Positions 680-54,756 of a DNA stretch of 64,000 nt are shown here, piece after piece; the stretch's first letter is position 1; every line of letters starts with the position of its first letter. Below the pieces are notes generated by a model. It had not been told where the DNA came from and did no database searches. It worked only from the letters and a program-made list of their open reading frames with translations. The translations under genes were made by a program, and so were the position numbers. Source of the DNA: Minutocellus sp. GHC0000111 (lineage: Eukaryota); assembly GCA_977018835.1 (NCBI GenBank), contig OZ361259.1:1054001-1118000 (forward strand), read 5' to 3'.

Positions 680-835
680 ATTTCCGTTGAATGATTTGCT
701 ACTTCAAACTTCTAAGTCGTGCTTCTTTATTTCCAATGACGGTGTAATATAAATGCATGCATGTGTAGAGCATGTAGTGTACCAATTAGTAACGGGTGTG
801 TAAAGAAATTTTTTATGTACCTGTTAGTACCTGTA

Positions 836-2685
836 CGAAGTCTCGCGAAATCGAGCACAGGGTCGGGACCAAAACAGCGACTTTTTGGGCCCGCAACCGC
901 CTGAATCTTAGATCTACCGGCATTGAACACATGTGCAATGCAAAGTACATGCATTGCAGCAGCTAGCATCCAGATCTACAATCCAATCTAGTATTATTTA
1001 ACACAAAATAACTTAAATGCACCGCAGGACTAATTATCCATGGTTGGATCAGCAGGAGGAGGAGCGATAATTTTCCCATCTGTCCGAACCATTCCATTTT
1101 CAGTCGGCCTGAAATCCTTTCGCACCCCAACATGAATGCCTTCACCGTTTCCAAGAAAATCATTGTTGCCTTTTGCAACGATTACCTTCTTTGCAATTCT
1201 ATGAGCCTGGATGTATGCCGATGCGATCTTCCAGTTTTCCAGCCCCATCCAAACTTCCTCCGCTGCATCCCAAGTCTGATCCTCTGTCAAAACCTTCAGC
1301 CCCTCCCGATCGCGGCACAACATTGTGTGCTGCTTTGACATGCAAGGGAAACAGACAGATCAAGAACATTCATATGGGGCATTTGCGGGGCCTGAGGTTC
1401 CCAACGCCATCCCTTGTCCCGACAGTATCCTTCCACATATTCCACAAATTCAGTCTCGGCATGGGGCCCAGTGTTGTCGCCCTGGAAAACAGGGACACAG
1501 CCTTCAAACTTTCCGCCAGGTCCGACCAAAGCCTCAACATCCGGAAATATCTTGTTCTCAAACAAAGCTTTCAGTGGGAACTTGGGATTATCAAGGGTGC
1601 CATGGCTGCATCCAGTCACCGCGCAATCCACAAGGTGTAGATCGTCTTTCTTCCGAACCACCGGGCCGCAATGTTTGATTCCACCATCTGCCTGCCGCAC
1701 CGCCTCCCTTGCCATCTGCCTCGCAATTTCATGCGCCTGAGCCCGAAAAAGTCCAAGCTTGAACGCAATGCCGCCATTCTCAATGCTGTCAATAAAAGCC
1801 AAGGCAGTGACAGCCACCACCATGCACTTGTTGATGTGATTTCGGTGACATGCCGAGAAGGACCGAGGATCAACACCCAATTCTGCAACTTGCTTGGCAT
1901 GCGATCGAAGAACCAAGCCCCAAAACCACTTCTCATCGAACATAACAAGGAGAAACTTGCCACCGCCGAGCCCCCAATTGTTTCGGAATTTCCGCGCAAA
2001 TGCCAAATGTTTCTCCATCTGATGTGTAGCAAGGAGAGGGATGATCCTTTCGGCACAGTGCCGGAACCCTTCCCGCGACATTGTCCACCGCCGTGTTGCC
2101 GAGTGGGAACACCAAAAGTTGACATCCACCTCCAGCTCCCGCCAAGATTCCCGAGGATTTCGCATCAGAGCATCAACAACAACATCTCGAATGCATGGCT
2201 GCATGGCCAGATGAGATCTCCTCTTCATCTCCCACATCGCCTTCTCAGATGCAGGCAGAGCACCACACGCCTTCATCCATCCCGAAAATCGTGCACCATG
2301 CTCTGTGCGCTGGACAGCACCGAATGGTCCACCTTTGCCTGCTCCCTGCACTTGGCAATTGCAAAGAGACATGGTGCAGCATGCCGCCGGGTCGCCGTTG
2401 CAAGATCGTCGATGACAGAACGGAAGGCGGCCGAATCAGATGAATCATCGGCACTCGTTGGGAAGCAGTGCACCGGTCCAAGTGGGACGAACGCGTCCAT
2501 TTGATTAGAGCCGCTGAAATCTAAAGTCTTATCCGAATTATTGTTTCACATGAAAATAAATCAAAATTAGAGTAAAAATAGCCATTTTCTTAAATATTTC
2601 AGCATGACTATTCTTCGAGGCGCTTTTCAATCCCCTCGAAAGCAGTCAAAAACCGGGCGCTCGATTTCTCGCCAATCTGACCTTG
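836..2685 (-). mobile_element. Tc1/mariner DNA transposon, copy 1 (internally deleted)
   Basis: TA at 834-835 and 2686-2687. Imperfect TIRs (CGAAGTC..CGCGAAATCGAGC / GCGCTCGATTTCTCGCCAATCTGACCTTG). Near-identical to 6653-16001 but lacks copy-2 ~14099-15800; the junction at ~2480 has the filler AGTGGG. Confidence 0.9.
1030..2480 (-). pseudogene. Mariner-type DDD transposase, 5'-truncated and frameshifted
   Basis: Motifs FDEKWF, QGDN(T/A)GPH and QAPQMPHMNVLDL resemble plant-type (DD39D-like) mariner; I count 38 residues between D2 and D3. The C-terminus is in ORF 1030..1341. Confidence 0.85.
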
Positions 2686-2739
2686 TACCCGATACGTGGC
2701 ATTTACTTAGGTGTGTACGGGCGGTAGCATGACCAGAAT

Positions 2740-2910
2740 TTTTTATTTTTATCGTAGGAGGCTATGTACACGCACCGCTTTTTTTGTCGTAGGAATTAAG
2801 GAATTGTCGCTATCCGTTGTGCGCACCGCAATTTTTTTTTCAATTTTTTTTTATCGTAGGAATTGTCACTGTCCATTGTGCGCACCGCAAGTTTTATTTT
2901 TATCGTGGCG
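2740..2910. repeat. Degenerate tandem repeat (3-4 units)
   Basis: Recurring TTTT(A/G)TCGT(A/G)G ... CGCACCGC units. Confidence 0.6.
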
Positions 2911-3217
2911 ATTGTTGGTTTTGCCTGACTAACTAAACGAGTAGAGGTGCGCTAAATGAATCAAAACTGTACTTTGGAAACCGAGTTTTATTGCATTTCC
3001 GTGAGAAGTGTGCTTGCTTTTGTCCATAAAAAATTGAACAAAACCCGGATCGTTTGAAACTTCTTACTGGAACCGTATATGTGCAAAATCTGTAACTAAG
3101 CGAACACTAGGGCTTGGTTTTTCAACAGGAGGTTCTGCACAATAGCTCTCGGTAGGACCGAGGATGAGGATTGACTTCAATTATTCCTAGTTTTTGAAGA
3201 AAATGTTACAATCCATT

Positions 3218-4256
3218 CTAGTCTCCATCTTTTTCAGTAGCGGTTCCCATTCCTCATGGTCGATTTTGTACATTTGGACCCCATGAAACACCTGTGGCTC
3301 TGTATCCTTCAAAATTCTCTCTCCAAGGGTCACAGGGCAGGTCGCTGCGTGATCTTTTTCTCTCGTAGAAGGATGTATGAGAGCTTAAATAGACTCGATA
3401 ATCCTGTACTGAAGCTAATTGATGCCCTTTCCCAGCGAATTGGACCGACTTCTGCCAGTAAGCCTTTCAGATTTGAATGTTGGAACAAGAAATTGTGAGC
3501 TCCTTTCAAAACAGCGATCTCAAAGCCCTCTACATCTAATTTTATAAAATCGACTTTGCTAAAATCCAAGCTATGGTGCAGGTGAAAAGCAAGGCAATCC
3601 AGAGAGACACCTAGAATCGATCCTTTTTCACTTTTGCGGAGGAAACCTTCATAGTTACTACCCCTGATATCGAACCGTTCGTTCTTCTCGCCCAATCCCA
3701 ATGGATATAAGTAAACCCGATTTGCTACTTCTCTCGGATTGAATTCTTTTCCGTGTTGAAGAGCCCTGAAATTGTTCTCGTTGATTTCAAATGAATGAAC
3801 GTCCATGCCCAAAGAAGCAAGATAGTATGTGTAGAAACCCTGATTCGCGCCGATGTCAAATGCCACTCCCCGCTCATTTCCTTTCAACAATTTTTTTATG
3901 AGGTAAAAGTTGGCAATGTCTGCCATCATGTGCCATGATACTTTGTTCTTGTCTTTGAATACAGTTCCAACATGAAAAGAGGGGGTAACTACGTCAGGGC
4001 TAGATCCCATTTGAATGCTGTTATCCAAAAAGAATGATCCTGCCGGAAGGATAATTGGCAGTTTCTTACATGAGTCGTCGACTTCAAAGAAATTCTTCTC
4101 GGACAAAGATAGGTCAAAAGTAAGGTTTTTGTGGACGTTTCTGCGCTGCATTTCATTATTCAAAGTGCAGTGCCCAACAAAAGAATACAGCATGCACCAC
4201 GCGCAGACTGATTGCAGGACGCAGTGCACACGCTTATGCTTACGTTGTTTTCCCAT
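3218..4256 (-). CDS. FkbM-family SAM-dependent methyltransferase with N-terminal anchor; C-terminal frameshift
   Basis: FDIGANQGFYT and FIKLDVEGFEIAVLKG. After an A-run at ~3357 another frame continues (KDHAATCPVTLGERILKD...). Confidence 0.85.
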
Positions 4257-4289
4257 TTCATCTTACTCGCAATGCTGCCCAAGAGCACC

Positions 4290-6420
4290 CTGATCCGCGC
4301 GTTGTCGCACCTCACCATGTTCGGCAATATTTTCCGGGTCATTGGTAATTTTGGCTCCTATCCTCCGCCGGGTGTGCCCTAGATCTACAGGCGCAACAAA
4401 AACTTTTCAACATCCCTACTGGTGTGCTTCCCTCCTTCTTTTTGGTCATTTGCACCGACCGTGATTAAAAGTGGCCCCATCTTGCTGTTGGCTTTGGCAT
4501 GAGATGAGGTGAATGGCAGGCATGGTGAAGTGTGCACAGTTGGTGGCAGGTGGTGAAGTTTAGCGCCAGCAATTTTGGTGGTGGTGTCGTCCCGCTAAAC
4601 ACAGCTTAAATCTGTCCATCATGGTGAAAAGTTAGAACCAAATCCAATTGGATAGGTAGCCTCATTTGCATCAGTAAGAACAAACATCAACAACATAAAC
4701 ACAAGATCGCAATTGCAAACTGTGTAGGGTAAGATTGAGTGAGGGTGAGGCAGGGGATCAGCACTTGTAGACCTACTCGAGGTCACGGTCTCTCCAAGCG
4801 TTGGGATCGTTGGCCGGTGCTAAGCCTTCGAAGGTAGCTGCCAGATTAAGTCTGGCTGATTGGCTCCTGGTGGTTCTTCTTGGTGCAGGTACTTCTGTGT
4901 CATCTTCGACCGTTGCTGTTACCGATGCTACTGCAGCATTAGCAAGAGCATTGACCACAGGGGACATGGCAGCACGCTCGACACTCTGAGTCCAACGGGG
5001 AGACAATGACGGCTACTTCTGCATCATCAGCAGCAAACGGCTCTGCGATGATGGCGTCGTCGTTGGTGGTGACAAGGGAGCACTGGGCACATGTTGGACC
5101 ATGGCGAAATTCACAGCTGTTGCAAAGGGGAGGTTGGCTGAGAGGTGAGAGGCACGGCGGGCCGAGGCAATCGACGCATCGACAGTTCCCACAAACAGCA
5201 GGGCCTCTCTGTCGTTGCTCGGTGTCGATGGTTCGGTGACGACGGTGGTTCTGGATCTTCTCGGCGGTGTCAGCCCCGGCGCTACTGGTTTGCAGGCAGC
5301 ATGAGAGCCAGGCTCGAGTCCCAAACACTTCTCCACTGTTGATGGCCAGGCTTCCGATTGCACTAGTTGGAACAGCGGGTAGACTCGGGGGGTGACGGTG
5401 ATGGTGCCAGCTCGTTTGATGCACGGAGCCTTTGCTGCTACTCCTCTTTCGAGGAACGAGGCTTCTCCGATGCGTCTCAAGCTGTCGGTGTTTTGAAATG
5501 CCATTCTTTGGGGACAAAGCATTGGCATGAGAGCGATGGTTGCGACCAAGCATTTCATTGCCCCATTGCCACCACGCCTCTGGAGGGAAGAGCATGGTGG
5601 CTGTGGATTTGGCATGACCATGTGGCTGTCATCCTGGTTCGCTCCCTTGCTCGCTTCTTGCCAGCATCTTGGCCCCGCCTGGGAGCAACGCACAGCATGC
5701 GCGTGCGCATGTCGACAAATCGCAATCATCACGAATGAGTGACCCGGAAAGTGAATCGCCAAACAAGCCCACGAGCAAGGCCCACGAGCAAGACCGAAGC
5801 AAAACGATGCCACTGGTACGCCAAGCCAACGTGTGCCTATTCAAACGCCCCCCAAGACCCCAACACCCAGAATTATCGCCAATGAGTCCCCCGGGGCTCA
5901 TCGGCGAATCGTCACGACTTGAGCGCAGATGCATCGCACCCCAAGCAAAAAGCATGCGATGTGGATGATGCCACAATCCAAAGATGCCAGATCACAAATA
6001 TTTGTGCAGATGCACCGGCATGATGTCGGTGGTGATTTTTACGTGCAATGTGCGTGTGACTTGCGCATCAATTTTGCGTAAAATTTACGACTCGGCGTCA
6101 AATTGATGTTTCCTTGACGCACAATTTAGTAAATTTTACGCAAAATTGGCGTCTCTTTTACGTCAAGGCGAAACATGTCTGCGAGGTCGAAAATCACAAA
6201 ATGTTTCGTGGGACTCCCAAAACACACCTTTTCGCCAAATTCCCGCAAGCTCCAGGATTTTTGTGTGTTTTTTTGTGTGTTAACATTTGCACAGCGCAGC
6301 TCTCGTGCACGCCTTGCAACAGCTCTTGCACGCGCTGCAGTCATTTTTTCCACAGCAGTTTGTTCTCTTGACCCCTGGATTTGCGACGACAGCAAGAATG
6401 CGTGGGCGAGCAACAGTTAA
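4290..6420. mobile_element. Unclassified degenerate repeat/TE relic
   Basis: Strong TpA depletion, overlapping stop-free frames rich in Cys/His, and a palindromic tract at 6032-6187. No diagnostic motif. Confidence 0.45.
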
Positions 6421-6475
6421 TTGTCACCACTTGCTTCATTTTCTTTGCACGTCAAATTTCATAGAGAAAACCGGA

Positions 6476-6652
6476 ATGAGACAGTCTCAATCTATTTTGA
6501 GATTGTGGATCTCTACCAGTCACTCAACAAAAATTTTTTCAATGAGTTTTGTTGCATTGGCAGCTCTCCTGTTTAATTCTTCTTTAGTCAATTTCGGTCT
6601 AATCCACTTGACAACAACATCACCCGACCCGGATCGATCTGTAGCACCCTTA
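6476..6652 (+). pseudogene. 5' part (membrane anchor) of a sulfotransferase gene split by the mariner insertion
   Basis: MRQSQ...FVALAALLFNSSLVNFGLIHL...SVAPL joins in frame, across the TA target site, to VIPNLLLAGAQKSGTT at 16004. Confidence 0.8.
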
Positions 6653-7020
6653 CGAAGTCCGTTTCGCGAGAAATCGAGCGCAGGGCCGGGACCAAAAAAT
6701 GTCGATTTTTGGGCCCGCAACCCGGACACGGACACATGCATGTGAAGCCGGAACCATCAAAACTGACAAGAGAGCACTGCACGTGCATGTGCGGCATGTG
6801 TGTGTGCAGCAGCACAAAAACATAGCTCGAATCTAAACAATCTAGCACTATCTTAAACATGACACAACTTAAAAGCACCGCAGGACTAGTTGTCCATGGT
6901 TGGAACTAACTTAACTTAACTTAAAAGCACCGCAGGACTAGTTGTCCATGGTTGGTTGGATCAGCAGGAGGAGGAGGAGCGACAATTTTCCCATCTGTCC
7001 GAACCATGCCATTTTCATAC

Positions 7021-7198
7021 CGTACGTACGCATGCATACGTACGGTACGTACGGTGATCAGACCACTGACTCAGTGCCCTCTCCTGACCGTTGATCCATG
7101 GGCCAACGACATCTCCGATGGCCCATTTTTCATCTACGTAGGTCCCATTAACCTCTACTAGCTATATCTATCTAGCTTAGCTTTAGGACCTCTTAGCA
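7021..7198 (+). repeat. 5' LTR (first 18 bp missing)
   Basis: Matches 12665-12842 with 3 substitutions; ends in CA. Confidence 0.95.
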
Positions 7199-7212
7199 GA
7201 CCTACGTGATGC

Positions 7213-8421
7213 ATGAATGAACCAGGACAACCTCCCCAACGCGAGCGTGTTGCCAAAGCGCTCGAGGAACTTCAACAAGCGGCGGCCAGCATTCCAGCAG
7301 GGTGCAATGACCACAACCTCGGCCATTTGGGCCTCGTCGTCAGCGATGCCGAACACACCACCAAAAGTAACGGCCGACCACATGTGCCTCCGGCAAATCC
7401 TGGCCCCAGCCCCACCATTCCCGCCGTGGCCAATCTAGACCAACGCGATCGTGCAATCCGGGGACATTGCATCGAAAAGGGCCACTGCAACTTGCACGAG
7501 CAAGTCAACACGGCGCTCAAGAATCTCCTCCTCGACTCGATCGACGCCGTCTACATCAATCATCTCGAAGATAACATGCTCGGTTTCCAGCCAGTCACCA
7601 TCCGCCAAATCATCGACAGCATTGCCGATCGCTACTTGAAATTCAACGAGACTCAGAAGGAGGAATTAGAGAAGCAGCTCGAGAAGCAGCACGACGGGGG
7701 ACCCATCGACACCCACATCGCCATGTTCAACAAAGTCTTCAAGGCGTTTGAAACGGCCGGCGAACCCTTCACCAACAAGCAAAAGGTCTCCAAGTTCTAC
7801 CGCTCCGTGCGCAGGTTCTCATTGGCAAAGAAGGCATGCGAGGACTGGGACGACAGACCGGAGGCCGAACGCACGTGGGCCAACATGCAGTCGGACTTCC
7901 GCGATTGGCATGATAAGAAGATGGCCAACACCACCACCGAAGCGGCAGGACATCATGGCGCGAATTTGGCCTCATCGGCCTCGGACGATCCATTTCTTTC
8001 TCGAGCCGATCTCCTTTTGGCTGATGCCACCGAAGCCCTCAAGACCAACCAAGCCATGATGGCGAACCTCGCCAAAAAGAGCAACGAGAAGGATGATGCC
8101 ATTGCCAAACTTCGCCAAGAAATAGCTTCACTCAAGGCCGAGAACCGCGTTCTGCGTGAGGGACGCAACCATGCTGGTGGCAGTGGAGGCTACCGCGGCG
8201 GTGGCCAGCAGAACGGCGCCGGCCACTTCCCAGGCCAAGGTCCTAACCTCAACCGCCAGGAGAAGCGGGAACTGCAGTCGATCCTCCCCAGAGGCGACCA
8301 TTGCCACACGTGCGGCTGTTCGTCCAACCACCCCAGCTTTGAATGCACTTGCAAAGGGCCCAACCACGTTGACAACGCCACCAAGTGCAATCCTTGCGGT
8401 GGTAGCTCGCGTCGTAACTGA
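7213..8421 (+). CDS. gag: Copia Gag
   Basis: AASIP...GHLGLV N-terminal motif and C-terminal CHTCG..H.S..C....H...AT..N..GGS knuckle typical of diatom copia Gag. Confidence 0.88.
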   Translation: MNEPGQPPQRERVAKALEELQQAAASIPAGCNDHNLGHLGLVVSDAEHTTKSNGRPHVPPANPGPSPTIPAVANLDQRDRAIRGHCIEKGHCNLHEQVNTALKNLLLDSIDAVYINHLEDNMLGFQPVTIRQIIDSIADRYLKFNETQKEELEKQLEKQHDGGPIDTHIAMFNKVFKAFETAGEPFTNKQKVSKFYRSVRRFSLAKKACEDWDDRPEAERTWANMQSDFRDWHDKKMANTTTEAAGHHGANLASSASDDPFLSRADLLLADATEALKTNQAMMANLAKKSNEKDDAIAKLRQEIASLKAENRVLREGRNHAGGSGGYRGGGQQNGAGHFPGQGPNLNRQEKRELQSILPRGDHCHTCGCSSNHPSFECTCKGPNHVDNATKCNPCGGSSRRN

Positions 8422-11400
8422 GCGGGAGGGACGGTGGATATTAATCAGCATAAAATAGAGGATGGTGTGTCTGAATCCACCTCCTCCCCGCCTTCGTTAG
8501 CTTTTCTTACGTCAAAAAGCAAACCTCCAACTCAAGAGCCAATCGTCCTCGCAGCAGATGCTGGAACGACGGGACATTTTGTCCAGAAGCCCCAACACCT
8601 GTCGCACGATGGCCCTATTTTCAACGTCCAACAGACAGCAATTCCTATCAGCGTCACCCTTCCGGACAATGGCACAATGACGAACACCCACGAGGCCACG
8701 CTTCGCCTCCCTGGGGTTTCCCCATCGGCTAGCAAGGCCTGTGTTTTCAATAACATGGCATCATCGCTCCTATCGATTGGGCAGCTGTGTGACGATGGAT
8801 GTGTTGCCACTTTCGATAAGGATTCGGTAGTCATCGCCAAGGACAACACCGTCATTTTGCAAGGTAAACGAGACCCCTCAACGAAATTGTGGATGGTAGA
8901 TCTTAATTGCTCGCCCACCATGTCGCCGCTCCCCGGCCCCAACGTCATCCAACATGCTGCCAACGCCGCAATTGCCCAGGAGACGGTTCCGGAACGTGTA
9001 GCCTTTTTACATTGGTGCGCTGGCAGTCCTCAGCTATCTGCCTGGTGCAAAGCAATCGATGCGGGATTTATAGATCTTGGCCAGGCCTCACATCAAAGCT
9101 TGTACGTAAGCACATGCCACAGTCGATGCCGATGATTAAAGGTCACTTAGACCAGCAGCGCAAGAACATCAGGTCGACCAAGCCCAAACGGTCGATGGCT
9201 ACGCCAAAATCTCTCCCTGGGGTGGACGAAACCGAGCAGGATCTCCACCCGGCACAACACCAACAGCGCACCAACTATGTCTTTGCTGATTGTCATGACA
9301 TAACGGGCCAGATCTTCTCAGATCAGCCCGGCCGTTTCTTGGCATCGTCTATTTCTGGCCACCAGCACATAATGGTCGTCTATGACTATGACTCCAACAG
9401 CATCTTGGCCGAACCAATGAAAAGCCGATCGGGAACGGAAATGCGCCGAGCGTGCCAAACTATTTTCGAATACCTCTCCAAGCGAGGATTTCGCCCAAAA
9501 TTGCAACGATTGGATGATGAAGTGAGTCGAGAGCTGAAGGAGTTCATGGAAGAAAAGGATGTAGATTTTCAATTGACCCCAACGCACTCCCACCGCCGAA
9601 ATGCGGCCGAACGAGCCATTCGAACCTTTAAGAATCATCTCATTGCGATTCTCTGTGGTGCCGATCCCGACTTTCCCCTCATCTTGTGGGATAAATTGCT
9701 GGAGCAGGCGGTAATGACCCTCAATTTCCTGAGAGCATCCCGAGTCAACCCTCGACTATCAGCGTACGAGCAACTCAATGGCGGCTTTGATTTCAATCGC
9801 ACGCCTCTCGGCCCCCTCGGATGCAAGGTCATCTTTCACGAGATGCCCTCGGCACGCGGCTCTTGGTCCCCGCATGGCGTTGATGGGTGCTGTGTCGGTC
9901 CAGCCATGGAACACTACCGGTGTTGCAAGGTTTGGATTGAGGAAACTCGGGCGGAACGCACTGGTAACACACTCGTCTGGCTCCCCAAAATGATTCCGGC
10001 ACCCAAAACGTCGTCGGCCGATGCAGCAATGGTCGCAGCTCATGAACTCCTGCACGCTCTACAGAATCCACATCCAGCGGCACCCCTTGCTCCCCTTCGA
10101 GACGAGCATCGTCAAGCTTTAGAAAAGCTCTCCGAGATTTTCAACAGCGTGACCCCAGCAGAATCTGCCACCTCCGCCTCTGATGAGACGATGCAGACAA
10201 CCGCAGCTCCGAGGGTGCTGGAGAACGATGATGACTCCCAACGATTCCGCCTCGGTACCATCGTCGCCAAAGTGTTTGGAGATCGAAGGGTAGAGTCGTT
10301 GCATTTGACAAGAAGTATAAGTACTACAAAATCAAATACGAGGACGACGATGTAGAAGAGATGAACGAGACTGAAGCAGGCCGTCACCTTGTCTCCAACC
10401 CCAACGCTCCGTTACCTCAGCCCCAGCAACCTCCGAGGGTGGCAAAATCCTCCACATGTGATGCAGCCACCACTAAAAGCCGTCGATCACGTCGATCCAA
10501 CGCGCCACCTCGCTCGTCAGTTTCTTCCAACTACTACAATCCTTTGGCTGCAGTAGACGAGCCCAACGGCGACGATGATGACAATCATGACGACGATGCA
10601 ACCGTCGTAACATCCAATCAAAGTTCCAATGCCCCCACCTCCCGTCGGCAACGTAAACGCAAGTCTCCAACGATCGATGCCACTCCAACATTACCAGCTC
10701 CAGCAAAATCGACAAGCAAGTCCAAACCATCGACCGCCAAACCACCTCGACGACGATCATGCCGTCAGCGAGGGCACATTCCACATCGGAACCCTCCCCC
10801 ACGGCCATCATCTCGTCGCAGCACCCACCACGTGGCCAACATGGCAGCTTTCTCGCCTTTACCAAACCTCCAACACTTTGCTAACGCCGTCGTCCATCCC
10901 GATGCTGGTGCAATGCTTGAACACCGCGACCTCCTCAAAACGAACATGAGGGACCAATTCATTCAAGCAAACATCGATGAAATTGGACGGCTAACGGACG
11001 GCCGAGTTGGAAACAGTGCTAGCATTCCCTCCAATACAATGGCTTTCGTCCACTGGTCCGAACTGCCTCGGGGGAAAAAAGCCACATGCCTCCGCATTGT
11101 CGCCGACTATCGCTCCCATAAACCAAATCCCAATCGAGTTCGATGGACTGCAGGAGGCGACAAAATTCATTACCCTGGCACAGTCTCGACCCCGACCGCT
11201 GAAATGTTGACTGCAAAGTTACTTTTCAACAGCGTCATCTCTACAGACAACGCTCGTTTCATGGGAATTGATATCAGTGACTTCTATCTCAATAGCACCA
11301 TGCCAGAGCCAGAATGGATGTGGGCGCCAGTAGCTCTCATCCCCGACGAAGTCATGGAAGCCTACGACCTCCACGACAAAGTAAAGAATGGTCGAGCATT

Positions 11401-12598
11401 GGTCAGAATCGATGGCGGAATGTATGGATTACCCCAGGCAGGGCGCCTAGCCTACGATCAACTTGTCAAGCATCTCAAACCCCATGGCTATTTCCCTTGC
11501 AAGCGTACTGCCGGCCTTTGGAGGCACAAAACCCGCCCAATTACCTTTTGCCTAACCGTTGACGATTTTGGAGTAAAGTATGTCGGGAAAGAGCATGCAG
11601 ACCATCTCATTCAGGCCCTCAACTCCAAGTATAAGATCACTACCGATTGGGAAGGCCGACTTTATTGTGGCATTCAACTCGAGTGGAACTACGAGGCCAA
11701 ATGGGTGGATCTATCTATGCCTAACTACGTCAAGGAGATGCGCCACAAGTTCCAACACGACCGCCCCTCACGGCCCGAGCATGCGCCATGTCGATGGAAT
11801 CGTCCGACGCATGGCCCGGGACCCCAGCTGCCAGAACCGGAAGACGACTCACCACCACTCGACGCCAAAGGCATCAACGAAATTCAACAGGTGGTGGGCA
11901 GCTCCTTGTGCTGTGGTCGAGCAATTGGTTCAACAATTTTACCGGCGCTCAATGGCATCTCAGCGGAACAATCCAAAGCTACCGAGCGCACTCGACAAGA
12001 TGCCAAGAAGCTTCTAGATTGCCTTGCAACCCATCCCGACGCAGTCATTCGATGCGTCAAGTCAGACATGATCCTGCATGCACATGGCGACGCCTCCTGC
12101 TCATCAGCAGCCCCGAAATCAAGAAGCAAGCTCGGAGGGTGCTTCTGCCTAAGCTCCCGACCTAAGGACCCGCACCGCCAGCCTGACTCAAGTGATCCCA
12201 TGCCACCAATGAATGGAGCCATCCTCATCAATGCCAATGTCATCAAGCATGTGATGTCCTCAGCCGCTGAAGCCGAATTGGGAGGACTGTTTTCCAACAT
12301 GAAAGATGCAGTGCCAATCCGGGCAGCACTAGAAGAAATGGGTCACCCGCAGCCCCCTACTGCTATCGTCGTTGACAACTCTACAGCATCTGGAATTGCC
12401 AATAAAACCGTCAAGCAAAGACGGTCTAAGGCTGTGGACATGAGATTCTACTGGGTCCAAGATCGCACAGAGCAACGACAACTCCAGGTGTGCTGGCGGA
12501 AAGGAGCGCAAAATTTGGCCGATTATTTTACAAAGCACCATCCCGCCCGCTACCATGTCGACATGCGACCAGTCTACTTACATGTAGATTCCAATTAG
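8422..12598 (+). pseudogene. pol: Copia Pol (protease, integrase, Tudor-like domain, RT, RNase H), frameshifts at ~9070 and ~10285
   Basis: ADAGTTGHF (PR); SDQPGRF, RLDDE and RRNAAERAIRTFKNH (IN); GIDISDFYL, MYGLPQAG and LTVDDFGVKY (RT); SAAEAELG, DNSTA and NLADYFTKHHP (RH). Confidence 0.93.
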
Positions 12599-12646
12599 GA
12601 CTCTACATGTAGATTCAATGTCACTAGTCATTGATCTGCGAGGGTG

Positions 12647-12842
12647 TGTTGATGCCGTGGGACACGTACGTACGTATACATACGTACAGTACGTACGGTG
12701 ATCAGACCACTGACTCAGTGCCCTCTCCTGACCGTTGATCCATGGGCCAACGACATCTCCGATGGCCCATTTTTCATCTACGTAGGTCCCATTAACCTCT
12801 ACTAGCTATATCTATCTAGCTTAGCTTTAGGACCTCTTAGCA
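12647..12842 (+). repeat. 3' LTR (196 bp, TG...CA)
   Basis: Starts TGTTGATG after the PPT, ends TTAGCA; direct repeat of 7021-7198. Confidence 0.95.
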
Positions 12843-14943
12843 CGATCTTCCAGTTTTCCAGCCCCATCCAAACTTCCTCCGCTGCATCCCAAGTCTGATC
12901 TTCTGTCAAAGCCTTCAGCCCCTCCCGATCGCGGCTCAACATTGCATGCCGCTTTGACATGCAAGGGAAAACAGACAGATCAAGAACATTCATATGGGGC
13001 ATTTGCGGGGCCTGAGGTTCCCAACGCCATCCCTTGTCCCGACAGTGTCCTTCCACATGTTCCACAAATTCAGTCTCGGCATGGGGCCCAGCATTGTCGC
13101 CCTGAAAAATAGGGACACAGCCTTCAAACTTTCCACCAGGTCCGACCAAAGCCTCAACATCCGGAAACATCTTGTTCTCAAATAAAGCTTTCAGTGGGAA
13201 CTTGGGATTATCAAGGGTGCCATGGCTGCATCCAGTCACCGCGCAATCCACAAGGTGTAGATCGTCTTTCTTCCGAACCACCGGGCCGCAATGTTTGATT
13301 CTGCCATCTGCCTGCCGCACCGCCTCCCTTGCCATCTGCCTCGCAATTTCATGCGCCTGAGCCCGAAAAAGTCCAAGCTTGAACGCAATGCCGCCATTCT
13401 CAATGCTGTCAATAAAAGCCAAGGCAGTGACAGCCACCACCATGCACTTGTTGATGTGACTTCGGTGACATGCCGAGAAGGACCGAGGATCAACACCCAA
13501 TTCTGCAACTTGCTTGGCATGCGATCGAAGAACCAAGCCCCAAAACCACTTCTCATCGAACATAATAAGGAGAAACTTGCCACCGCCGAGCCCCCAATTG
13601 TTTCGGAATTTCCGCGCAAACACCAAATGTTTCTCCATCTGATGGGTGGCAAGGAGAGGGATGATCCTTTCGGCACAGCACCGGAGCCCTTCCCGCGACA
13701 TTGTCCACCGCCGTGTTGCCGAGCAGCAACACCAAAAGTTGACATCAACCTCCAGCTCCCGCCAAGATTCCCGAGGATTTCGCATCAGAGCATCAACAAT
13801 AACATCTCGAATGTATGGCTGCACAGCCAGATGAGATCTCCTCTTCATCTCCCACATCGCCTTCTCGGATGCAGGCAGAGCACCACGCGCCTTCATCCAT
13901 CCCGAAAATCGTGCACCATGTTCTGCGCTGGACAGCACCGAATGGTCCACCTTTGCCTGCTCCCTGCACTTGGCAATTGCAAAGAGACATGGTGCAGCAT
14001 GCCGCCGGGTCGCCGTTGCAAGATCGTCGATGACAGAACGGAAGGCGGCCGAATCAGATTAATCATCGGCACTCGTTGGGAAGCAGCATGCCGGTCCACC
14101 GCCGCTCCTTTTCTTCGCCACCTTCTCCAGATTCGATAGATGTGAGTTGCTCTTCCCCCATCCAACTTGAACAAGGTGCCGGATGGACTCTGGATCATGC
14201 TTTGACTGTCGCTTCAGCATCCTTCCGTCGGAGCCTTGCCGAAAGTGATGCCGGTCGGGCTTGCTGTCAAGGTGCTGCCGAAGATGCATCACCTCTGCCC
14301 CTTCTCGGCATCGGTCATCTGCTTGGATCCGGGCTTGCCAAGACCGAGCTCTGCTCGATGAAACCCCTTGGGCTTCCCCGAAGAATATCCATCATTCAAT
14401 CTTTCCAGCAAATCATAAATGGGATGCCGCCGGTCAGATCCAGAGTCCACCGCCGGTTCATCCACCACCGGTGTCGCCCTCTTTGCCCTCCCAGCAGCAA
14501 GATTTGGTTGGAGAAATTCCTGACCAAATAGTATGACAGTGATGTCGTCGTGCGGTACGTCATGGTGGAGCAACCCACACCATGAGCTGCATCTTGCTTG
14601 ACCGACACAACCGTTTCTGCACCGGCACCGGCAACCAATTGGACGTAGCCATTTCCTGCAGGGCGGTTGTAGCCAGGAGAGGCATTGGCCTTTACCTGCA
14701 CGCGCTCTCCAACTCTCACATGGGCAAGGTGGTTGGTGGTGACAAATGGCTTGGTGCGGGGCGCAACAACGGGAGGAGCGGACGTTCTGGTGGCTTTCAG
14801 ATGCTCCGCGTTGGCCTTGAGCACCCGAGCCACTTCAGCCTCGCGCTGACGCTCCTTCTTCAGGAGCTTCGCCGCAAGCTCGGCATCGCCGAGGACCTTC
14901 TTTGTTCTCTTCCTGGGGGTCTTTGCCTTATTCTTTGGGGCAT
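12843..14943 (-). pseudogene. Mariner transposase of copy 2 with long N-terminal extension; extreme C-terminus displaced to ~6938-7017
   Basis: Same DEKWF / GDNAGPH / NVLDL motifs. ORFs 14396..15133, 14289..14573, 14059..14292 and 12802..13950 chain through frameshifts from a likely ATG at 14943. Confidence 0.8.
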
Positions 14944-15220
14944 TCTTGGCTCTATTTTGTGCCACAATGGTTGAATTTTGTGTTGAATTTTGTGTTGGTG
15001 AAAAATTATGAGTGGGGAGTCGAAAGTGAAAGTTCCAAAATGACACGATCGAACGGAAAAGACCACCATGGCGGGAACCACCAAACAAAAGAGTGCACAG
15101 GCCGAAAACTGCATGCGACCCACGCATGTCCAAATCCCATCAAAGCACATTGCATTCCACATGACATCTCACAAATCAAACAATTCAACAATATCAAACA
15201 TAAAACAAAATCAAATCATC

Positions 15221-15838
15221 ATGGTGCTCCGCTTCATCCTCATCAACAAATCCCAGCTCTCCAAGTCCTGGGTGATCCCCGCCGGTGCAAATGTCGTCCT
15301 GGACGACGAGAGAACCTCGGGCCAGCATGAGATCCTTGCCATCCCCAAGCATGCCGATCGCGTCATCGAAATGCTCAGCTTCGACTTCCGCCCGAGACAC
15401 AAATGGATTGAACACATGCTCACCGCCGCTGTCTTGGCCATCATCATTGACCAGGAGAAAACTCTCAAGATTGACGGGCCCGAGGATTTTGAGAAGCACA
15501 TGCTCCTCAATGTCGTCAGCCGACTCGTCTGCCGGGCGATCAGGGCCGAGAACATGCCCCTCGACATGGATGACGTCGTGGCAACAACTGAATCGGTGTG
15601 CGACAAGGCCGCGGAGACGCTCCACTCCTCAGTTGCCTTAATCTGCAAGTTCAACGGCGTGAAGCGAGAGCTAAAGAAGCTCAAGCTCATCCCGGATTCG
15701 CTGTGGTGCGAGATCCGGGACGAGTGCATCGCACTGCCGATCCGAGGCGAGTGTCATGCCATCGTTCAAGATGAAGACGAGATGGAGGCCGAACCGTCGA
15801 ACGAACGCGTCCATCTGATTAGAGCCGCTGAAATCTAG
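15221..15838 (+). CDS. Passenger ORF (205 aa, unknown function) inside the mariner TIRs
   Basis: ATG after an A/C-rich leader, strong GC3 codon bias, uninterrupted frame, divergent from the transposase. Confidence 0.7.
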   Translation: MVLRFILINKSQLSKSWVIPAGANVVLDDERTSGQHEILAIPKHADRVIEMLSFDFRPRHKWIEHMLTAAVLAIIIDQEKTLKIDGPEDFEKHMLLNVVSRLVCRAIRAENMPLDMDDVVATTESVCDKAAETLHSSVALICKFNGVKRELKKLKLIPDSLWCEIRDECIALPIRGECHAIVQDEDEMEAEPSNERVHLIRAAEI

Positions 15839-16003
15839 AGTCTTATCCGAATTATTGTTTCATATTAGGATAAATCAATATTAGATAAAAAAATATCCAT
15901 TTTGTTATGTATTTCAGTATGACTATTCTTCGAGGCGCTTTTCAATTCCCCTCGAAAGCAGTCGAAAACCGGGCGCTCGATTTCTCGCGAATCTGACCTC
16001 ATA

Positions 16004-16922
16004 GTAATTCCGAATCTTTTGCTAGCAGGAGCTCAGAAAAGTGGAACGACTGCCTTACACGCGGCTCTTGAATTGATATCCCAAAAGGCAAGCACAATCT
16101 GCTTTCCTAAAAAGTTGACAACGGAAGAAAAGTATTATGCAAAAGAGCTTCATTTTTTTGACAGGGAAAATCGGTGGGAAGAAGGACCTGTTTTCTTTCA
16201 TGAACGTTTTCGTCACTGTTTGACTAATCATAGATCATAGTCATCAAGAAAAGGGACAAAGACAATGGAGACTAGATGCCTACATGCTGTTCCCAGAAAA
16301 AAATAGTGTCTTTCTATGAAAATTATGCCGCAATAGATGGGTTGCGAATAATATTCTGTCTTCGCGAGCCTGTTTCAAGAGAAATTAGCTTTTATAAGAA
16401 CCAAAAGAGGGATTACATTCAGCAAGGAACTCCACTCTCAGAGGGGGGGGGCTCACAAGTCTCCGTGAATTTTGGATGAAGAAAAATTTTAGTGAGTTGC
16501 TTGCCAAGAATGGTGATAATGCTAGAAATCTTGCTAGTCCTTCATCACATAATAATGGGCTGTATGGACCGTTACTGAGACGTTGGATTGCAGCTATGCC
16601 CGGCCGTCGCTCGCAGATCTTAGTCCTGTCGTACGATGAGCTCTTGGAAGACCAGGCTTCTGTCTTACGACGCATTAATGGTTTTCTGGGGCTAACAGAC
16701 CAAAATGACGCTTCTCACGAATTGGTCAATGAAATACCAATTCGAAACAAATTTTCTACTCTTCTGTACAATTCTACTGAAACTTCATGTTCCTATCAAG
16801 ATGATCTTGCTGCGCTTTTCGAAGAATCTAACCAACAATTGTACCAGTTACTTCGTCAAAATCCGGGGCCATCAACCGAGGAAAGGCCATTTCGAAGATT
16901 CCAGTATAGATGTGATCACTGA
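16004..16922 (+). pseudogene. PAPS-dependent sulfotransferase catalytic domain (disrupted)
   Basis: AGAQKSGTTAL (5'PSB), KELHFFD, LREPVSREISFY (3'PB), GLYGPLLRRW...ILVLSYDEL, spread over three ORFs. Confidence 0.88.
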
Positions 16923-20230: not shown

Positions 20231-20718
20231 AAGAAGCTGTTACAGAAGCGAGCTTGTTGCTGCTACTGTTGAGAAGATACTACTGTTGAAACAGTATGAC
20301 GCTACCACAACACCACCCCAAGTAGTAAAGGCTGCCACAATGATGATGTCATTTATTTTTGTGCAAGTTACTTACATTTGCATCTCTCTCTGCAAGAAGC
20401 TGTTACAGAAGCGAGCTTGTTGCTGCTACTGTTGAGAAGATACTACTGTTGAAACAGTATGACGCTACCACAACACCACCCCAAGTAGTAAAGGCTGCCA
20501 CAATGATGATGTCATTTATTTTTGTGCAAGTTACTTACATTTGCATCTCTCTCTGCAAGAAGCTGTTACAGAAGCGAGCTTGTTGCTGCTACTGTTGAGA
20601 AGATACTACTGTTGAAACAGTATGACGCTACCACAACACCACCCCAAGTAGTAAAGGCTGCCATAATGATGATGTCATTTATTTTTGTGCAAGTTAATTA
20701 CATTTGCATCTCTCTGCA
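20231..20718. repeat. Tandem triplication, 163-bp unit
   Basis: Units start at 20231, 20394 and 20557. Units 1 and 2 look identical; unit 3 has two substitutions and a 2-bp shorter CT run. Confidence 0.97.
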
Positions 20719-21199: not shown

Positions 21200-23330
21200 C
21201 TACAGCGAAGCTGCTAGCCTGGTGAGGTGCATGTGAGTCGGACCTAAGGGTCCTGTGAAATCACGTGCGCCTTCAAATGCATGTGCCGGGTCAGACACTG
21301 GCAGATCTCTGTCTAGATCTGCTCATCATGTGTGGAGACCGGGGCAAGCCATTGCAGTCATGGTAACAACATCAATGATGACTAGTCAAGGTTCGCACGT
21401 CTGCGAGCTGATTGCTCTCGGCAAGAGTGCTGGGCTTCTAGCTTGCCTGCTCCGTCATGAGCATGTAGGTGCGGGCTAACAAGCCCTACAGATGCCACCT
21501 CAAACACCAATCTGTTGCAGAAAACTTCATTGAGATGGTCCCATCTCAGACTTGCTCTGTCAGTTGATGGCACACAGTCCCAAGGTGTCACTCCATCTGG
21601 CTGATGACCAACACCACAAGCATGAGCCCAGTCTTTTATTTTTAGAAATGCTGTAGCAAGGGCACAATTTTTGTAATGACTCCTTCTCCCTCAATGGCAT
21701 TCAAGAGGAACTCATCACCTTTCTTGGATCTGAGCTGAGATGAGAAAGATTTGCGATTGAAAGACGAGATGTTGCAACCAGCCTCAGGTGCAGGTCGTTC
21801 CTCAATTTCTTGCATGGTGGCACCAAGAATTGTCAATCGAGGCACTCTGCTGCTGAGGAAAACTCTCATGCCAGGAGCAAGCCGTTCATCTTTGGCATCT
21901 CTGGCCATCAGTTGCCTCTTCAGCTGCTGCATTTCACAAGCCGCAAGCCCCTTGATGCACTCATTGAGGCTGAAATCACACACACATCATTGTCATGAAA
22001 AAAGATTCGAAAGTTTCCAGGTGACTTGCTCTGATCTTTTGTGGGCCACAAAATGACAAATCGTCTTTCCGTCAGTGCGTCAATTTCTGTGTTGCTAATT
22101 TTAATTTTCTCATTCAAACCCATTTTCGGCTTGGGAGTGTGATGCCCGGACCCCTCCACCATGGTGGACCATCATCCCCGCTGCTACACGGCGTTGACAC
22201 AAGATGTGCGCATTCAGAAGGCCGGCCGACACCATTTCGCTTCACATGCGAAAGTTTCACCTGACTCCGACAGGCACAGCACGAGACAACATCATGCACA
22301 ACAATCAACCATGTGAAATCACACACAAAACGACCGCGGATGTCATGTGTTGCTGTGAGAGCCACAGCAGCCCAATCCCTCCAGCATTCCAAAGAGATGC
22401 GCCCGAGACATGCGTTCAATTGTTTTTGTGGTTGATTGTTGTGTTTTGTTTTTGTGTCCCCACCCCGGCCGGCCGATGATGAGAGCAAAATTTGCCCCGT
22501 CGGCCCGTCACGTGTTTTTGATTTTTTTTGATCGAGCACAACATGTGCTACGAATGGAATTTTGACCCCGCTCCTTCGCGAGATGAACGAGAGGGGGCAG
22601 CGGCAGCAGTCCGGAGGCGTCGGGCGTGACTCCGGAGGATCTGTAACATGTTCTCTTCATTTTTCGGCTCAAGGAGTGGAGGGCCGTACGACGTCATTTT
22701 TTGCGTGAAACTTCCCCCACCACAGCGAAAGCACGCGAAGGAATTTCGAGACCGGACTTTCGGGTCCACCTTCCTCATGTTATGTAAAAGGTGGACATTC
22801 ATCAAAAAGCCCGAATTGAACCTTTGTGGCTTCGTCAATGAGGGGGAAAAATCCTGCATTTCAGCAGTGAAAACGACTGCGTTCGGCGCTAACAAAATTT
22901 CACCGACGGACGACGGAAAGACGATTTGTCACAGCTCTTGTTCGGAGTGGCCCACAAAAGATCAGAGCAAGTCAGGTAGGAGTGGATGGTCAGTCATGAA
23001 TGGTGATGCCCTTGCAGCTTCTTGAGCTGTCACACCAGCAGCAAACACAGGAGTGCCATCCAGAAAGCAATGGATGCCGTTGCACACACCAGTGCATGTA
23101 GCGCTGCTTTCTTTCCCCAAATTTGCTGCTGCTACGGCACCTGCGCAGTGTTTTGTCCCAAACTTTGCCAGCAGGTGCTTCCCCAGAGCCTCTGTTTCAT
23201 AAAATGCAGCAACAGCGGAGTTAGCTGAAGCAGAAAAATGTTTGTTAGCACCTTCTTCATCTGGTGGAAGAGATTCTAGTGAATTTGGTGTTTCTCTGAT
23301 CATCTTTCTTTTGGCTGGCTGAAAATGAGA
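21200..23330 (-). mobile_element. Degenerate TE-like coding relic, interrupted by the 22023-22973 MITE
   Basis: TpA-depleted. The frame TDHPLLP|GNFRIFFHDNDV is restored when the MITE and one TSD are removed. Family not identified. Confidence 0.5.
22023..22973. mobile_element. Non-autonomous TIR element (MITE A), 4-bp TSD
   Basis: Perfect 27-bp TIR GACTTGCTCTGATCTTTTGTGGGCCAC (22023-49 / 22947-73). Second 20-bp IR at 22054-73 / 22912-31. AGGT on both flanks. Confidence 0.92.
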
Positions 23331-23384
23331 AAATGAAAAAAAATCGTTTGAAATAAATCATGCCACACACTGCGTGCTTGCTAA

Positions 23385-24040
23385 GAGTGGGTCCAAATGA
23401 AAAAAATTGTCTTGCGTCAAAATCGGCTGAGTCAAAATCCGATTTTGGTGTGGTGCTTGCGCGGAGGAAAATCGAGCGCGCATGCACGCAAATCTGATCT
23501 GCTTCGAAATCGACATTTTGCGCACGTGATGTGCTGACAAATGAGGGTGGTGCGGGAGCCGCTCTCGAATGCAACAACTCTAGCGAATCCAAATGCAAAA
23601 ATTTGCACAACTGTCGACAAGATACTGATGTTCCAGAACATGGCTCGGAAATGTCACATAAAAAGCGATTGTGTGGAATTTGACACATCATGTGAGCCCC
23701 CAAAATCGAAGACACGGGCCCATTTTTTGTCATTTTTGGGCCCAAAAACACGGAATTCACAATGACCGACGCAATGACGACCACACGAAACGTGCACTGG
23801 GCAACACATGCAATCCTCATACTTTTGCGTTCCGTTCTTCCGCTCAAAATAGAGCTGCATGTTGGCATCTGCCGCATCCGAGGTCGATGGTGACGGACAG
23901 ACCCAGATTTTGACGCAGCCGATTTCCGCACAAATGAGAAAAATCATCTGGAACATGAACCGGCTTGCTTGTTTTTCTGCTTCGGATTCCGGTGCAGTCG
24001 ATTTCGACACAAGTCGACTTTTTTTCATTTGGACCGCCTC
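23385..24040. mobile_element. PIF/Harbinger-like MITE
   Basis: Imperfect ~55-bp TIR GAG(TG/GC)GGTCCAAATGAAAAAAA..., with TAA immediately outside both ends. Confidence 0.85.
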
Positions 24041-29959: not shown

Positions 29960-32130
29960 GTAGAGTGTCCTCAGGGTGCCGTGTGTCAGCGGAGGCTTTG
30001 TCCATGGATGGCAAAAGCACGATTCTTTGTGCCTTGTGCCATGGAAGAGCCACAGGGCAAGGAAATGGCAAAAGCATGATTCTTTATGCCTTATGCTCTT
30101 CTGGGATGCATTTGCCGCTCTGCGGGCTACCGCTACAATTGTAGCAACCGCAATCCACTTTCGGCGCACTAACAACTCGTCCGGAAGTCCCCAAGCCCAG
30201 TCCAATGACTGAACGAAAGTCTAACCAAACCCCATTTGTGGTGTGCGCTGTGTGTTTGTGGTGTTTGTGTTTGTGTTTGCGTGTGCAAGAGATGCTCCTG
30301 CATTCTCAAACTGCAACGATGGAAAAGCAGAATCGACTTTTCCATCTTGGCGCATCACGGCGAGCTTGTGCCGCAAGGAATTTGTTCACACGGATGAGGG
30401 AACCACCGCAACGTTCTGCTCAATGTTCCACTCGTGGCATGGAACTACACCCACCCACCAAAGAGGAGAGCGAGATTTCATCAGCAACGAGTTGAGCATC
30501 GGAGGACAAGCAGTGGCTCGTTCAATGTCGACCATCGTTGGAGGACGGCAGGACTTGCTGCTAACAGCCACCTTCTCGTGTTTGGTCTAGGAACTCGGCT
30601 TGCCATGGTGGAGAGTTGTGGCGGCATCTTGCAATCGCCTTGCTTTCACGTGGCATGGAATTTTCACCGACTTCCACACTTTCCTGCCTTCAGCAGATGA
30701 TCGGGCTTGGTGGCAGCCGCGACACGACGTGCCGCCGCGCCGGAAGCCATCGATGTGTTCACCATCGTCAAGCATGAGGGCATCCGTGCAAAATGCACGT
30801 GAAAGTCACGTGATGTGCTTTTGTCAAGTTGGGCGATGCCATGCGCGCGCCGGCCGGCGCGAATTTGCGGCGGGACCAGCGTCGTGTCTGAGTGACGCAT
30901 CATCAACGTTGGTTCAGCTGGACCAGCTTGGTTCAGGCCAGTTCAGCGCTGGCCTCACACGGCGAAAGGTGCTAACAAAATTGACCCGATTTTTTATCGT
31001 TCGCTTCCCCCCAACAACGAACGGCGTTTCTTGGGGAGTCGGACATGCAGGCGGCAAATGAACCGGCCTACGAACGGATCAAAAGGACTTGATGGCCAGC
31101 CAAGAATGATGGTCGCGTCGGCCCAGTCGGCCAGCCACACCCTCATCATGCATGCGCCGCAAGAGATGATCGGCACATGCACAACCTGGACGGCATGCAG
31201 CACATGCACCGGTGTCGGCGAACAGACTAGATCTACCGCACACGCACATGTGGTCAAAATGCATGCTCAACAAAAAAAGAACATGTTTACTTTTAGAATT
31301 ACAGCATGGGTACAATGAGCAAGTTAAATGTCGTGCATCGCTGTTTCAGCAAAAAGAAAAGGAATGTGGGCGTGACAAGGAAAACCTCCACCGCCGTCCT
31401 GAAACTGCCATCTACAGAAGCAGTTTTCAACCTCCGAACTCGATGTCACCGCCTTCTTCCTGACTTCCATCCCCTTAATCAAAAATTTCAACGTCATCTT
31501 CATCTCCACCATTGGAACATTGAACCACCAGAATGTCTTGTGATGCGTTTTCAGTCCCTCCTGAATCCTCCCCATTGACCACGAAAGCAGAAGTGTGTCC
31601 AGACACGTTCCAGTCAAGCGCATGATTGTGAAAAGTCGAACGAGCAAGAGCATCGCCTTGCCGCAAATCGCTTTTTTTCTTTCCAGAAAAAATCCTCTCG
31701 ATCGACAGCAACCTCCAACTTGACTACTAGCATTGGTCTTCAAATGGCTTTCATGAAGGGAAAGAAGGGAAGACAAGGAAAGGAAAAGCGCAGCGTCCTG
31801 AGCTTGACGAAGAAAGAGAAACAACATAGAAGCAGCAAACAGGGCGCCACGTTCAAAGTCCGCCAAACAGACACTCTTCCGTCCGCGTCGTCCACTTCGG
31901 CGGCCATGGCCGCTTCTGCTGCCGCAGCAGCATCGGCTGCATGCCCAGAAGTTGTTGACACGAATGTGCAACCGTTTCGTTCATTGACTTTGGAAGAGTT
32001 GGATCAGATGGAGATCTCCTTTTCTCAAAAGGAAAACCAGGCATGTTGTGGAGTCGCACGTTTCGCTGCTCCGGAGAAGACCTTAAGCCAGCAGATTGGA
32101 GCAACGTGCACATGGCTGTGACCGCTGTAT
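29960..32130. mobile_element. Cluster of unclassified TE relics
   Basis: TpA-depleted; ~33-bp direct repeat at ~30008 and ~30065; shared terminal-like motif CGGCGGGACCAG at ~30868. Confidence 0.45.
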
Positions 32131-35200: not shown

Positions 35201-35294
35201 TTCTTTTTCAGGTCAGAGATCATTGGTTCATTTCAGGTCGGTGAACTGAATGAAACCTAAGTGAAAGTAAGAATAAGGCGACTCAAAGAATGAA

Positions 35295-43605: not shown

Positions 43606-44288
43606 CGATGGCGCAGTGTGCTTCTTATTTAGGATTGAGTGGGGCGGGAGGTGAGCGACGAACAGACTGGCAGCCTGAAGATGCTTCTGGGGGTGTCCAT
43701 GTACCTAGGTACTTAGGCTGGGACTTTGTTCGACGGCGAACGAGACGGGACTAGAGGGAGTACTCCTATGATAAAGTAGTGGTTCACAGCAAAATTTCGT
43801 GCGTGCGATTCTCGACTTTGTTCCGAATCGCTCTCAGCTCATGCAAAGCCACCGATTTGACGAAGTCGAGCCGGCCACGCATCTCCGCGGCTGGCTTTGC
43901 TCCCCGCCCCCGCCACGTGCAATGTCTTCGGCATCTTGGATGCCAATGCCTTCGGGAGGCATTGCTGGCACGTGCCTGCAGGATGGCGCAGCAGGCCAGC
44001 AACTGTCGTCTTCGTCGTGACGATCAACAAGACGGACGAATCCGTCATGGAAGCACATCATGCGCTTGCTGTCACAAAGGTCGCAGAGATCTGTCCTTCG
44101 TCAGTTTTAGATTGCATGCACCATTTTAAAAAATGAGAACTGATGTCACTTTCAAGAGACAGATCACAACATGCAAACACAACAAAACCCGTGATGAGCA
44201 CTCACACTTGCATTTTCTAGACGGGAAAATCCATGCAACTAGACAGTTAAAAACTGGTAACACTTTTTTGGGCAGACTCTTTTCAAAC

Positions 44289-54692: not shown

Positions 54693-54756
54693 GCATTTCA
54701 TTATAGAGATTTAAACATACACTTAATATGAAATAGAGCTACAGTGCCACTTTAGT

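Follow-up and report, generated by a model that had tools for sequence, protein, structure and literature searches.

A 64,000-nucleotide stretch of the genome of Minutocellus sp. GHC0000111, likely a diatom (assembly GCA_977018835.1, contig OZ361259.1, positions 1,054,001 to 1,118,000, hereafter the window), contains two copies of a mariner/Tc1-type DNA transposon, one of which is interrupted by a copia retrotransposon. These elements have been altered by a process acting at the DNA level, on both strands, which converts A:T to G:C specifically at TpA dinucleotides, in a copy-specific manner. The preferred account, held with a probability of roughly 0.55, is that of a targeted process, probably identical to the one behind TpA hypermutation in the chlorarachniophyte Bigelowiella natans and likely involving ADAT2/TadA-type deamination of the TpA adenine in silenced DNA. 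The window thus extends a little-known process to another lineage and does not reveal a new kind of process.

The first mariner copy (828-2687, minus strand) was delimited by self-BLAST and by alignment to a DNA outgroup, L001, which is 80% identical. It is internally deleted, with about 1.7 kb of the second copy absent between 2480 and 2487, and its interior is heavily TA-depleted (observed/expected TpA ratio, rhoTA, of 0.15 at 1082-2492) with the ends largely spared. Its transposase frame (1296-2435, minus strand) encodes 379 residues, including 2 Tyr, 20 Cys and 16 His, and matches HTH_Tnp_Tc3_2 under the Pfam cut-off (E 2.7e-5). The second copy (6651-16003, minus strand) is bounded by 31-nucleotide inverted repeats at 6651-6681 and 15973-16003, is 77% identical to L001 over 12845-16004, and carries a 405-residue transposase frame (12844-14058, minus strand) with a single Tyr. 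At the 14 positions where the family has Tyr, copy 2 reads His, Cys or Arg at 13 and copy 1 is changed at 12. Named relatives of the transposase occur in Cylindrotheca closterium and Bacillariaceae sp. Two extra frames inside copy 2 (14396-15139, minus strand, and 15044-15838, plus strand) are TA-depleted and align to L001, with no match in Pfam.

When the two copies are aligned (1224-2480 against 12843-14098), 45 of 1,258 columns differ, namely 7 gaps, 5 transversions and 33 transitions. TA/TG/CA differences account for 16 of the 31 substituted sites, nine of them single and seven of them double sites where TG faces CA. An original prediction, made from the sequence alone, had held that the copies differ mostly at TpA and that each had lost different sites. 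The strings it quoted from 1421-40, 13041-60, 2191-2210 and 13811-30 are present, as are the copia motifs LCC (11906), DASCSS (12089) and GGCFCL (12134). TA-type differences do occur, but they make up only about half of the total, and among the 21 TA sites altered in both copies the state differs at 6 and is identical at 15. Both strands of the DNA are affected, the TG/CA counts being 13/12 in one copy and 12/11 in the other.

Since a TG/CA pattern could derive from either TA or CG, the direction of change was tested in three ways, using L001, outgroups of the copia reverse transcriptase (RT) and contigs from other sequencing runs. L001 has 44 TA in the aligned region, of which 5 are kept in copy 1 and 4 in copy 2, with 28 reading TG or CA in each copy; the other 15 dinucleotides are kept at 35-82%. 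Over the 3.2-kb L001 alignment, 62 of 102 TA have become TG, CA or CG, and nine changes run in the reverse direction. Five of the seven double sites of the mariner pair trace to TA, while those at 13092/3 and 13621/2 likely derive from CpG because the family-majority residue there is Ala. TA, and not CpG, is therefore the ancestral state overall, as had been predicted, and the fungal direction, in which C>T changes create TpA, is not followed: TpA has been lost, not gained.

Ordinary causes could in principle imitate such a pattern, and four were considered: CpG decay misread in direction, GC-biased gene conversion, editing of an RNA before it is reverse-transcribed, and assembly artefact. Together they have been largely refuted and are left with almost negligible weight. 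Low-level CpG decay is present, as indicated by the 2 of 7 double sites and by C[G>A] at 10 of 2,331 sites in the mariner family. A decay read in the wrong direction is contradicted by the copia RT, where Tyr is both the family and the outgroup state and Arg is absent from the outgroups.

The substitution spectrum of the mariner family provides evidence on context. Clustering of the transposase at 90% gave clusters of 146, 12 and 46 proteins, all encoded on Mb-scale contigs; one clustered transposase is mariner copy 2 itself, which ties the clusters to this assembly. The spectrum is based on 46 rows (45 listed proteins minus the window duplicate plus both window copies) of at least 204 clustered proteins, and counts only amino-acid changes having a unique single-base cause. 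A>G changes amount to 103/1,344 after T and to 14/8,882 after the other bases (V), a 49-fold enrichment (p 4e-76) in the context that had been predicted, and one which excludes GC-biased gene conversion. After A the figure is 4/2,686, transversions amount to 26/39,670, and T[G>A] stands at 23/2,545, these last sites probably being places where the majority has already been altered. The strands are balanced, with Tyr>Cys at 25 and Tyr>His at 30, which together with the involvement of a DNA transposon and with divergence between the copia long terminal repeats (LTRs) confirms the earlier claim of a lesion in DNA on both strands and excludes RNA editing. Three further mariner families have Cys or His at 21/138, 22/63 and 23/96 Tyr-type cells, with change elsewhere at about 1-2%.

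The load is two-tiered. Four heavy copies (both window copies, P0227 and P0205) are altered at 62/127 sites, against 41/1,217 in 42 light copies (heterogeneity p 6e-52), and the light copies are themselves enriched when each site-change is counted once (18/47 versus 5/319). Transversions are not raised in the heavy copies (1/3,696 versus 25/35,974 in the light ones), which rules out greater age as the explanation. A>G changes outside TA reach 6/821 in heavy copies versus 8/8,061 in light ones, as expected from a leaky enzyme. Five variants of copy 2 recur in light copies such as P0265, and none of them occurs in copy 1; since the window copies differ at these five sub-lineage markers, they belong to different sub-lineages, and each was likely altered independently after insertion. 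For the same reason, common ancestry of the changes in the two window copies, to which the 15 of 21 sites in the same state might point (p 0.08), is not favoured.

These figures also bear on error-prone synthesis, in which a polymerase of the eta or iota type, while repairing silenced copies or replicating them late, would place G opposite T, with no deamination involved. Such synthesis accounts for the involvement of both strands, the lack of strand runs and the excess of non-TA A>G where the load is heavy, and the WA>WG signature of Pol eta is in line with it. Nevertheless, the difference between 4/2,686 after A and 103/1,344 after T is far more specific than a WA motif, and transversions are not raised where the load is heavy. 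This explanation is considered unlikely.

The same distribution speaks to a true inverse of repeat-induced point mutation (RIP), whereby repeat homology recognised by pairing would trigger mutation, perhaps at a sexual stage. Every well-tested target here is a repeat, light copies are enriched too, and the two heavy window copies are linked at a distance of 11.6 kb; RIP favours linked repeats. On the other hand, 42 of the 46 listed copies (of at least 204 clustered) are only lightly altered and a 178-bp LTR pair is nearly spared, so that homologous repeats are not hit as such. In Bigelowiella, moreover, the main target is single-copy and the lines are clonal, according to the portion of that report available (Mettrop et al., 10.64898/2026.01.13.699255). 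A pairing-triggered mechanism is accordingly regarded as highly improbable, and the term "repeat-targeted" used in the original prediction is not supported in its RIP sense.

The copia element confirms the direction of change and indicates changes after insertion. It comprises a 5' LTR (7021-7198, plus strand; 18 TA left), whose 5' end is about 18 nucleotides shorter than that of the 3' LTR, followed by gag-, protease-, integrase- and RT/RNaseH-like frames (7210-12598, plus strand; RVT_2 in Pfam) with one stop and frameshifts, and by the 3' LTR (12647-12842, plus strand; 20 TA left, 9 of them RTAY, where R is a purine and Y a pyrimidine). The LTRs differ at three places, two of which are TA>CA and TA>TG, indicating TA-type changes after insertion. 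They retain 7 and 9 RTAY sites, with only these two post-insertion changes. At 21 conserved Tyr columns of the RT the window reads 13 Y, 5 C, 2 H and 1 W, and 119 outgroup proteins read Y 2,343, H 9, C 3 and R 0 of 2,499 cells. Each of six same-family copies has its own set of Cys and His at conserved Tyr columns. The TA>TG/CA changes fall on conserved Tyr and Leu codons, with the highest density at 11789-12146. A patchy arrangement of these changes in the RT (runs test p ~0.001 in the window copy, not in the 6 other copies; post hoc) is retained as a weak hint, for which slow Y-TAY contexts partly account.

The outgroups therefore bear out the use of conserved copia motifs to give direction, although some of the examples offered for it are weak: Ala at TVGGD>TAGGD is also found in 20 of 119 outgroups, and at the two columns of GGYFYL>GGCFCL only 45 and 47 of the 119 have Tyr. 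Two further examples came from a LINE-like (long interspersed nuclear element) frame at 27262, outside 836-16001, and from a Penelope fragment (TY to TH); neither label found a Pfam or PDB match, and both examples stand unverified.

Contigs from four sequencing runs, two of DNA and two of RNA, were aligned on 7000-14150 (among the matches listed, 40 of 185 rows). At 95 places a G or C of the window faces an A or T as the family letter, against 41 in the opposite direction (run X1), and among these matches TpA is restored at 25 of 33 G>A/C>T places. Both states coexist in contigs of two studies at 11913 (derived state at 41-56% of depth) and at 12099 (derived state at ~90%); the derived states are thus not peculiar to this assembly, which argues against an assembly artefact, and derived states of the predicted kind are present in contigs of other studies. 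At many other places the window letter is absent from the contigs, a point in favour of such an artefact; it is also expected for single-copy variants dropped by contigs, and constitutes no proof. One contig of run X10, an RNA library, spans the transposase at 12843-14098 with TA at all listed places, and the expressed mariner copies may be the unaltered ones, with DNA contamination of the library being possible. On short ENA/Logan contigs (P0012, P0519-P0522, P0348), another copia family and a single mariner copy show copy-specific Tyr>Cys/His changes, so that the signature exists in other assemblies. Runs containing the stretch include sponge and marine metagenomes. Among 33 metagenome mariner loci no heavy depletion was detected (27 matches measured, rhoTA 0.39-0.71; 1/200 windows below 0.3), and three Cylindrotheca mariner copies had 0/24 Tyr changed; neither result is evidence of absence, because short-read contigs collapse copies.

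The process prefers RTAY. Within TA-poor islands, RTAY-type sites keep TA at 22/788, mixed sites at 108/1,516 and YTAR-type sites at 61/716; outside the islands the figures are 441/1,836, 904/3,700 and 309/1,749, respectively. Tyr codons of the copia element are altered at 41/54 after a purine versus 17/76 after a pyrimidine, and at asymmetric sites the strand bearing the 3' pyrimidine is favoured 10 to 3. As A>G and T>C convert no sense codon to a stop, reading frames remain open and the relics resemble genes rich in Cys and His.

A strict dinucleotide context with a symmetric RTAY preference would also be expected from a mispairing base mark on palindromic TpA in silenced DNA, either a TET/JBP-oxidised thymine or a modified adenine, in which case the mutations would be a by-product of silencing, like those of 5-methylcytosine at CpG. 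Oxidised thymine mispairs with G. Dinoflagellates silence transposons with TET/JBP-made 5-hydroxymethyluracil, yet the accessible text of that study names neither a TpA context nor a diatom (PMC11572971), and the 1000-fold, line-dependent rate reported for Bigelowiella better fits an active mutator (Mettrop et al.). The base-mark explanation seems distinctly unlikely.

The damage is bounded by the elements. Their flanks have a rhoTA of ~0.6, and TA of L001 is kept at 8/80 interior versus 18/37 terminal sites. In a host amidase, 0/18 Tyr have become Cys or His relative to a 79% identical relative, whereas the mariner transposase shows 12/14 against an 82% relative; the predicted contrast with host genes is thus seen in the one gene compared with an orthologue. 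Most host frames in the zone rich in transposable elements (TEs) keep 42-62 TA per kb, and a host FkbM-type methyltransferase gene between the elements (3330-4262, minus strand), an internal control for composition only, has an ordinary 45 per kb. Low rhoTA was rejected as a sufficient marker: GAPDH (0.17-0.18) and other GC3-rich genes score equally low, which is a point in favour of ordinary causes.

Under the preferred account, TA would be turned into TG or CA on both strands of transposon interiors after insertion, copy by copy. The adenine of TpA would be deaminated to hypoxanthine by an ADAT2/TadA-type enzyme recruited to silenced copies and read as G at replication, with repeated rounds bringing some copies near saturation. 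Targeting would be guided by each copy's own state of chromatin or transcription, not by copy number, and transposase, RT and integrase would be disabled through missense change. In tRNA, A34 follows U33. A broader proposal, which is possible but tentative, envisages a diatom genomic adenine base editor that is switched on at individual silenced TE copies, prefers RTAY and disables them through missense while their frames are left open, as part of an ancient SAR-wide immune pathway common with chlorarachniophytes and as a third mutational defence class beside RIP and APOBEC.

Several observations weigh against the deaminase account. No candidate enzyme was seen within the window, and an A:T>G:C change looks alike whether the lesion lay on A or on T. 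In amphioxus, ADAT2 acts at GAA and TCG, not TA, in the available part of its description (PMC10354150). The mariner copies show no strand-coordinated runs (p 0.50, 0.20), hence no sign of a processive single-strand pass. Altered variants are common to several copies, and at 12790 and the matching 5' LTR place both LTRs have CA where the family has TA, a change inherited from the parent element; altered elements have thus kept moving, and the process is not always disabling. The family evidence is at the protein level, its codons being deduced from the window copies, and heavy copies are probably under-sampled through clustering at 90%. A single gene, the amidase, serves as host control; it is under selection and was compared with one relative. 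A host-like gene beside a TA-poor island (33995-34888, minus strand) has 32 TA per kb, and four of its Tyr-majority columns read W, F, R and H, two or three of which fit TA changes; it is near-identical in Logan contigs, so that any changes there are fixed, and spill-over into a host gene is possible. Similarly, a proprotein-convertase P-domain frame (44372-44830, plus strand) lies within a TA-poor island and has no Tyr, and is a possible non-TE target.

Other features of the window can be described briefly. A TA-depleted relic at 4950-6640 (rhoTA 0.24) had been labelled Penelope-like, a label that Pfam and PDB searches did not confirm by any match, and its interior carries a perfect 20-nucleotide inverted repeat with a 40-nucleotide spacer (6069-6148). 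More TA-poor islands lie between host genes at 21295-24020, 30169-32350, 35206-37222 and 43796-44785 (rhoTA 0.19-0.24), with 22200-22493 and 35849-36143 being 73% alike; Pfam returned nothing meaningful on 62 island frames. Approximately three tandem copies of a 163-bp unit, 99% identical, occupy 20231-20715. Positions 1-51000 are AT-richer and TE-rich, with many glycosyl-, sulfo- and methyltransferase-like genes and a CpG ratio (rhoCG) of ~0.7, and 51100-64000 holds GC-richer core genes with rhoCG ~0.96. There, GAPDH adjoins an MFS transporter (59871-62900), a pair which presumably resembles the bacterial gapdh-arsJ arsenate pair.

What this region adds, on family-level evidence, is that the load varies with the individual copy and follows neither age nor repeat status. 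The only earlier report found is one preprint on a rhizarian, in which the enzyme is only proposed as far as the available text goes (Mettrop et al.). The literature search, in which subscription journals were mostly outside coverage, found no report of TpA hypermutation in diatoms, in agreement with the original prediction as regards diatoms; the signature itself had been described in Bigelowiella. A diatom case moves the question to a group with genetic tools, and one in which TE methylation is known and DNMT5a silences TEs, as partly consulted work on Phaeodactylum indicates (PMC9998398). The fingerprint (RTAY, copy-specific, ends spared) can be used for matching candidate enzymes, and a deaminase, should one prove to be the cause, would be a natural editor of adenine in DNA that works on chromosomes, with relevance to base editing. 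Because the changes never create stops, dead elements are annotated as long Cys/His-rich proteins, and TE ages estimated from divergence are inflated by TpA hypermutation. The process also opposes the 2.21-fold genome-wide GC>AT bias given for Phaeodactylum in the accessible part of PMC6604790.

Comparison with known systems places these observations more precisely. Fungal RIP likewise degrades transposons through dinucleotide-specific transitions on both strands, but it proceeds by C>T, creates TpA and stops, and needs paired repeats and the RID methyltransferase. The present process proceeds by A>G, destroys TpA and cannot create stops, and most repeats escape heavy damage. APOBEC and ADAR edit a single strand of an RNA or cDNA intermediate, whereas here a DNA transposon is affected, on both strands and after insertion; the likeness lies in deaminase-type hypermutation of mobile elements, as in APOBEC editing of retroelements (PMC4866542, available part). 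Single-strand editing before integration does not agree with changes on both strands, in a DNA transposon and between LTRs. Adenine base editors are TadA-derived and convert A to inosine in DNA. ADAT2/3 and TadA-derived deaminases resemble the present case in that A>I in DNA gives A:T>G:C, and amphioxus BjADAT2, a naturally occurring ADAT2, deaminates A in DNA, preferring GAA/TCG and hairpin loops, with no anti-transposon role shown in the text available (PMC10354150). The atypical spectrum of Prasinoderma was rejected as a parallel, the accessible text giving no TpA link (PMC11884799). The closest match is Bigelowiella, where, in the available portion of the preprint, which does not mention diatoms, two viral regions account for 231 of 302 de novo mutations, almost all of them TpA>TpG/CpA and occurring in some lines only at a rate raised ~1000-fold, with ADAT2 proposed as the enzyme and TEs suggested as further targets (Mettrop et al.). 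In both cases A>G changes follow a T and T>C changes precede an A on both strands of genomic DNA, with uneven occurrence, and the restriction of A:T>G:C transitions to TpA holds here too, with minor leakage beyond this context in heavy copies. The process is confined to foreign DNA there and affects transposon copies here, the enzyme there being only a candidate; DDE and RT domains are enriched among the TA-poor coding sequences of Bigelowiella. The two differ in that Bigelowiella is a rhizarian with a measured de novo rate and with viral regions of 25-186 kb, one of which, the main target, is single-copy, whereas the window holds a historical footprint in a likely diatom, bounded by multi-copy mariner and copia elements (1-3 kb). 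Uneven load among copies is only an analogy to line-dependence in Bigelowiella, and near saturation in a few copies and the RTAY preference further distinguish the present case.

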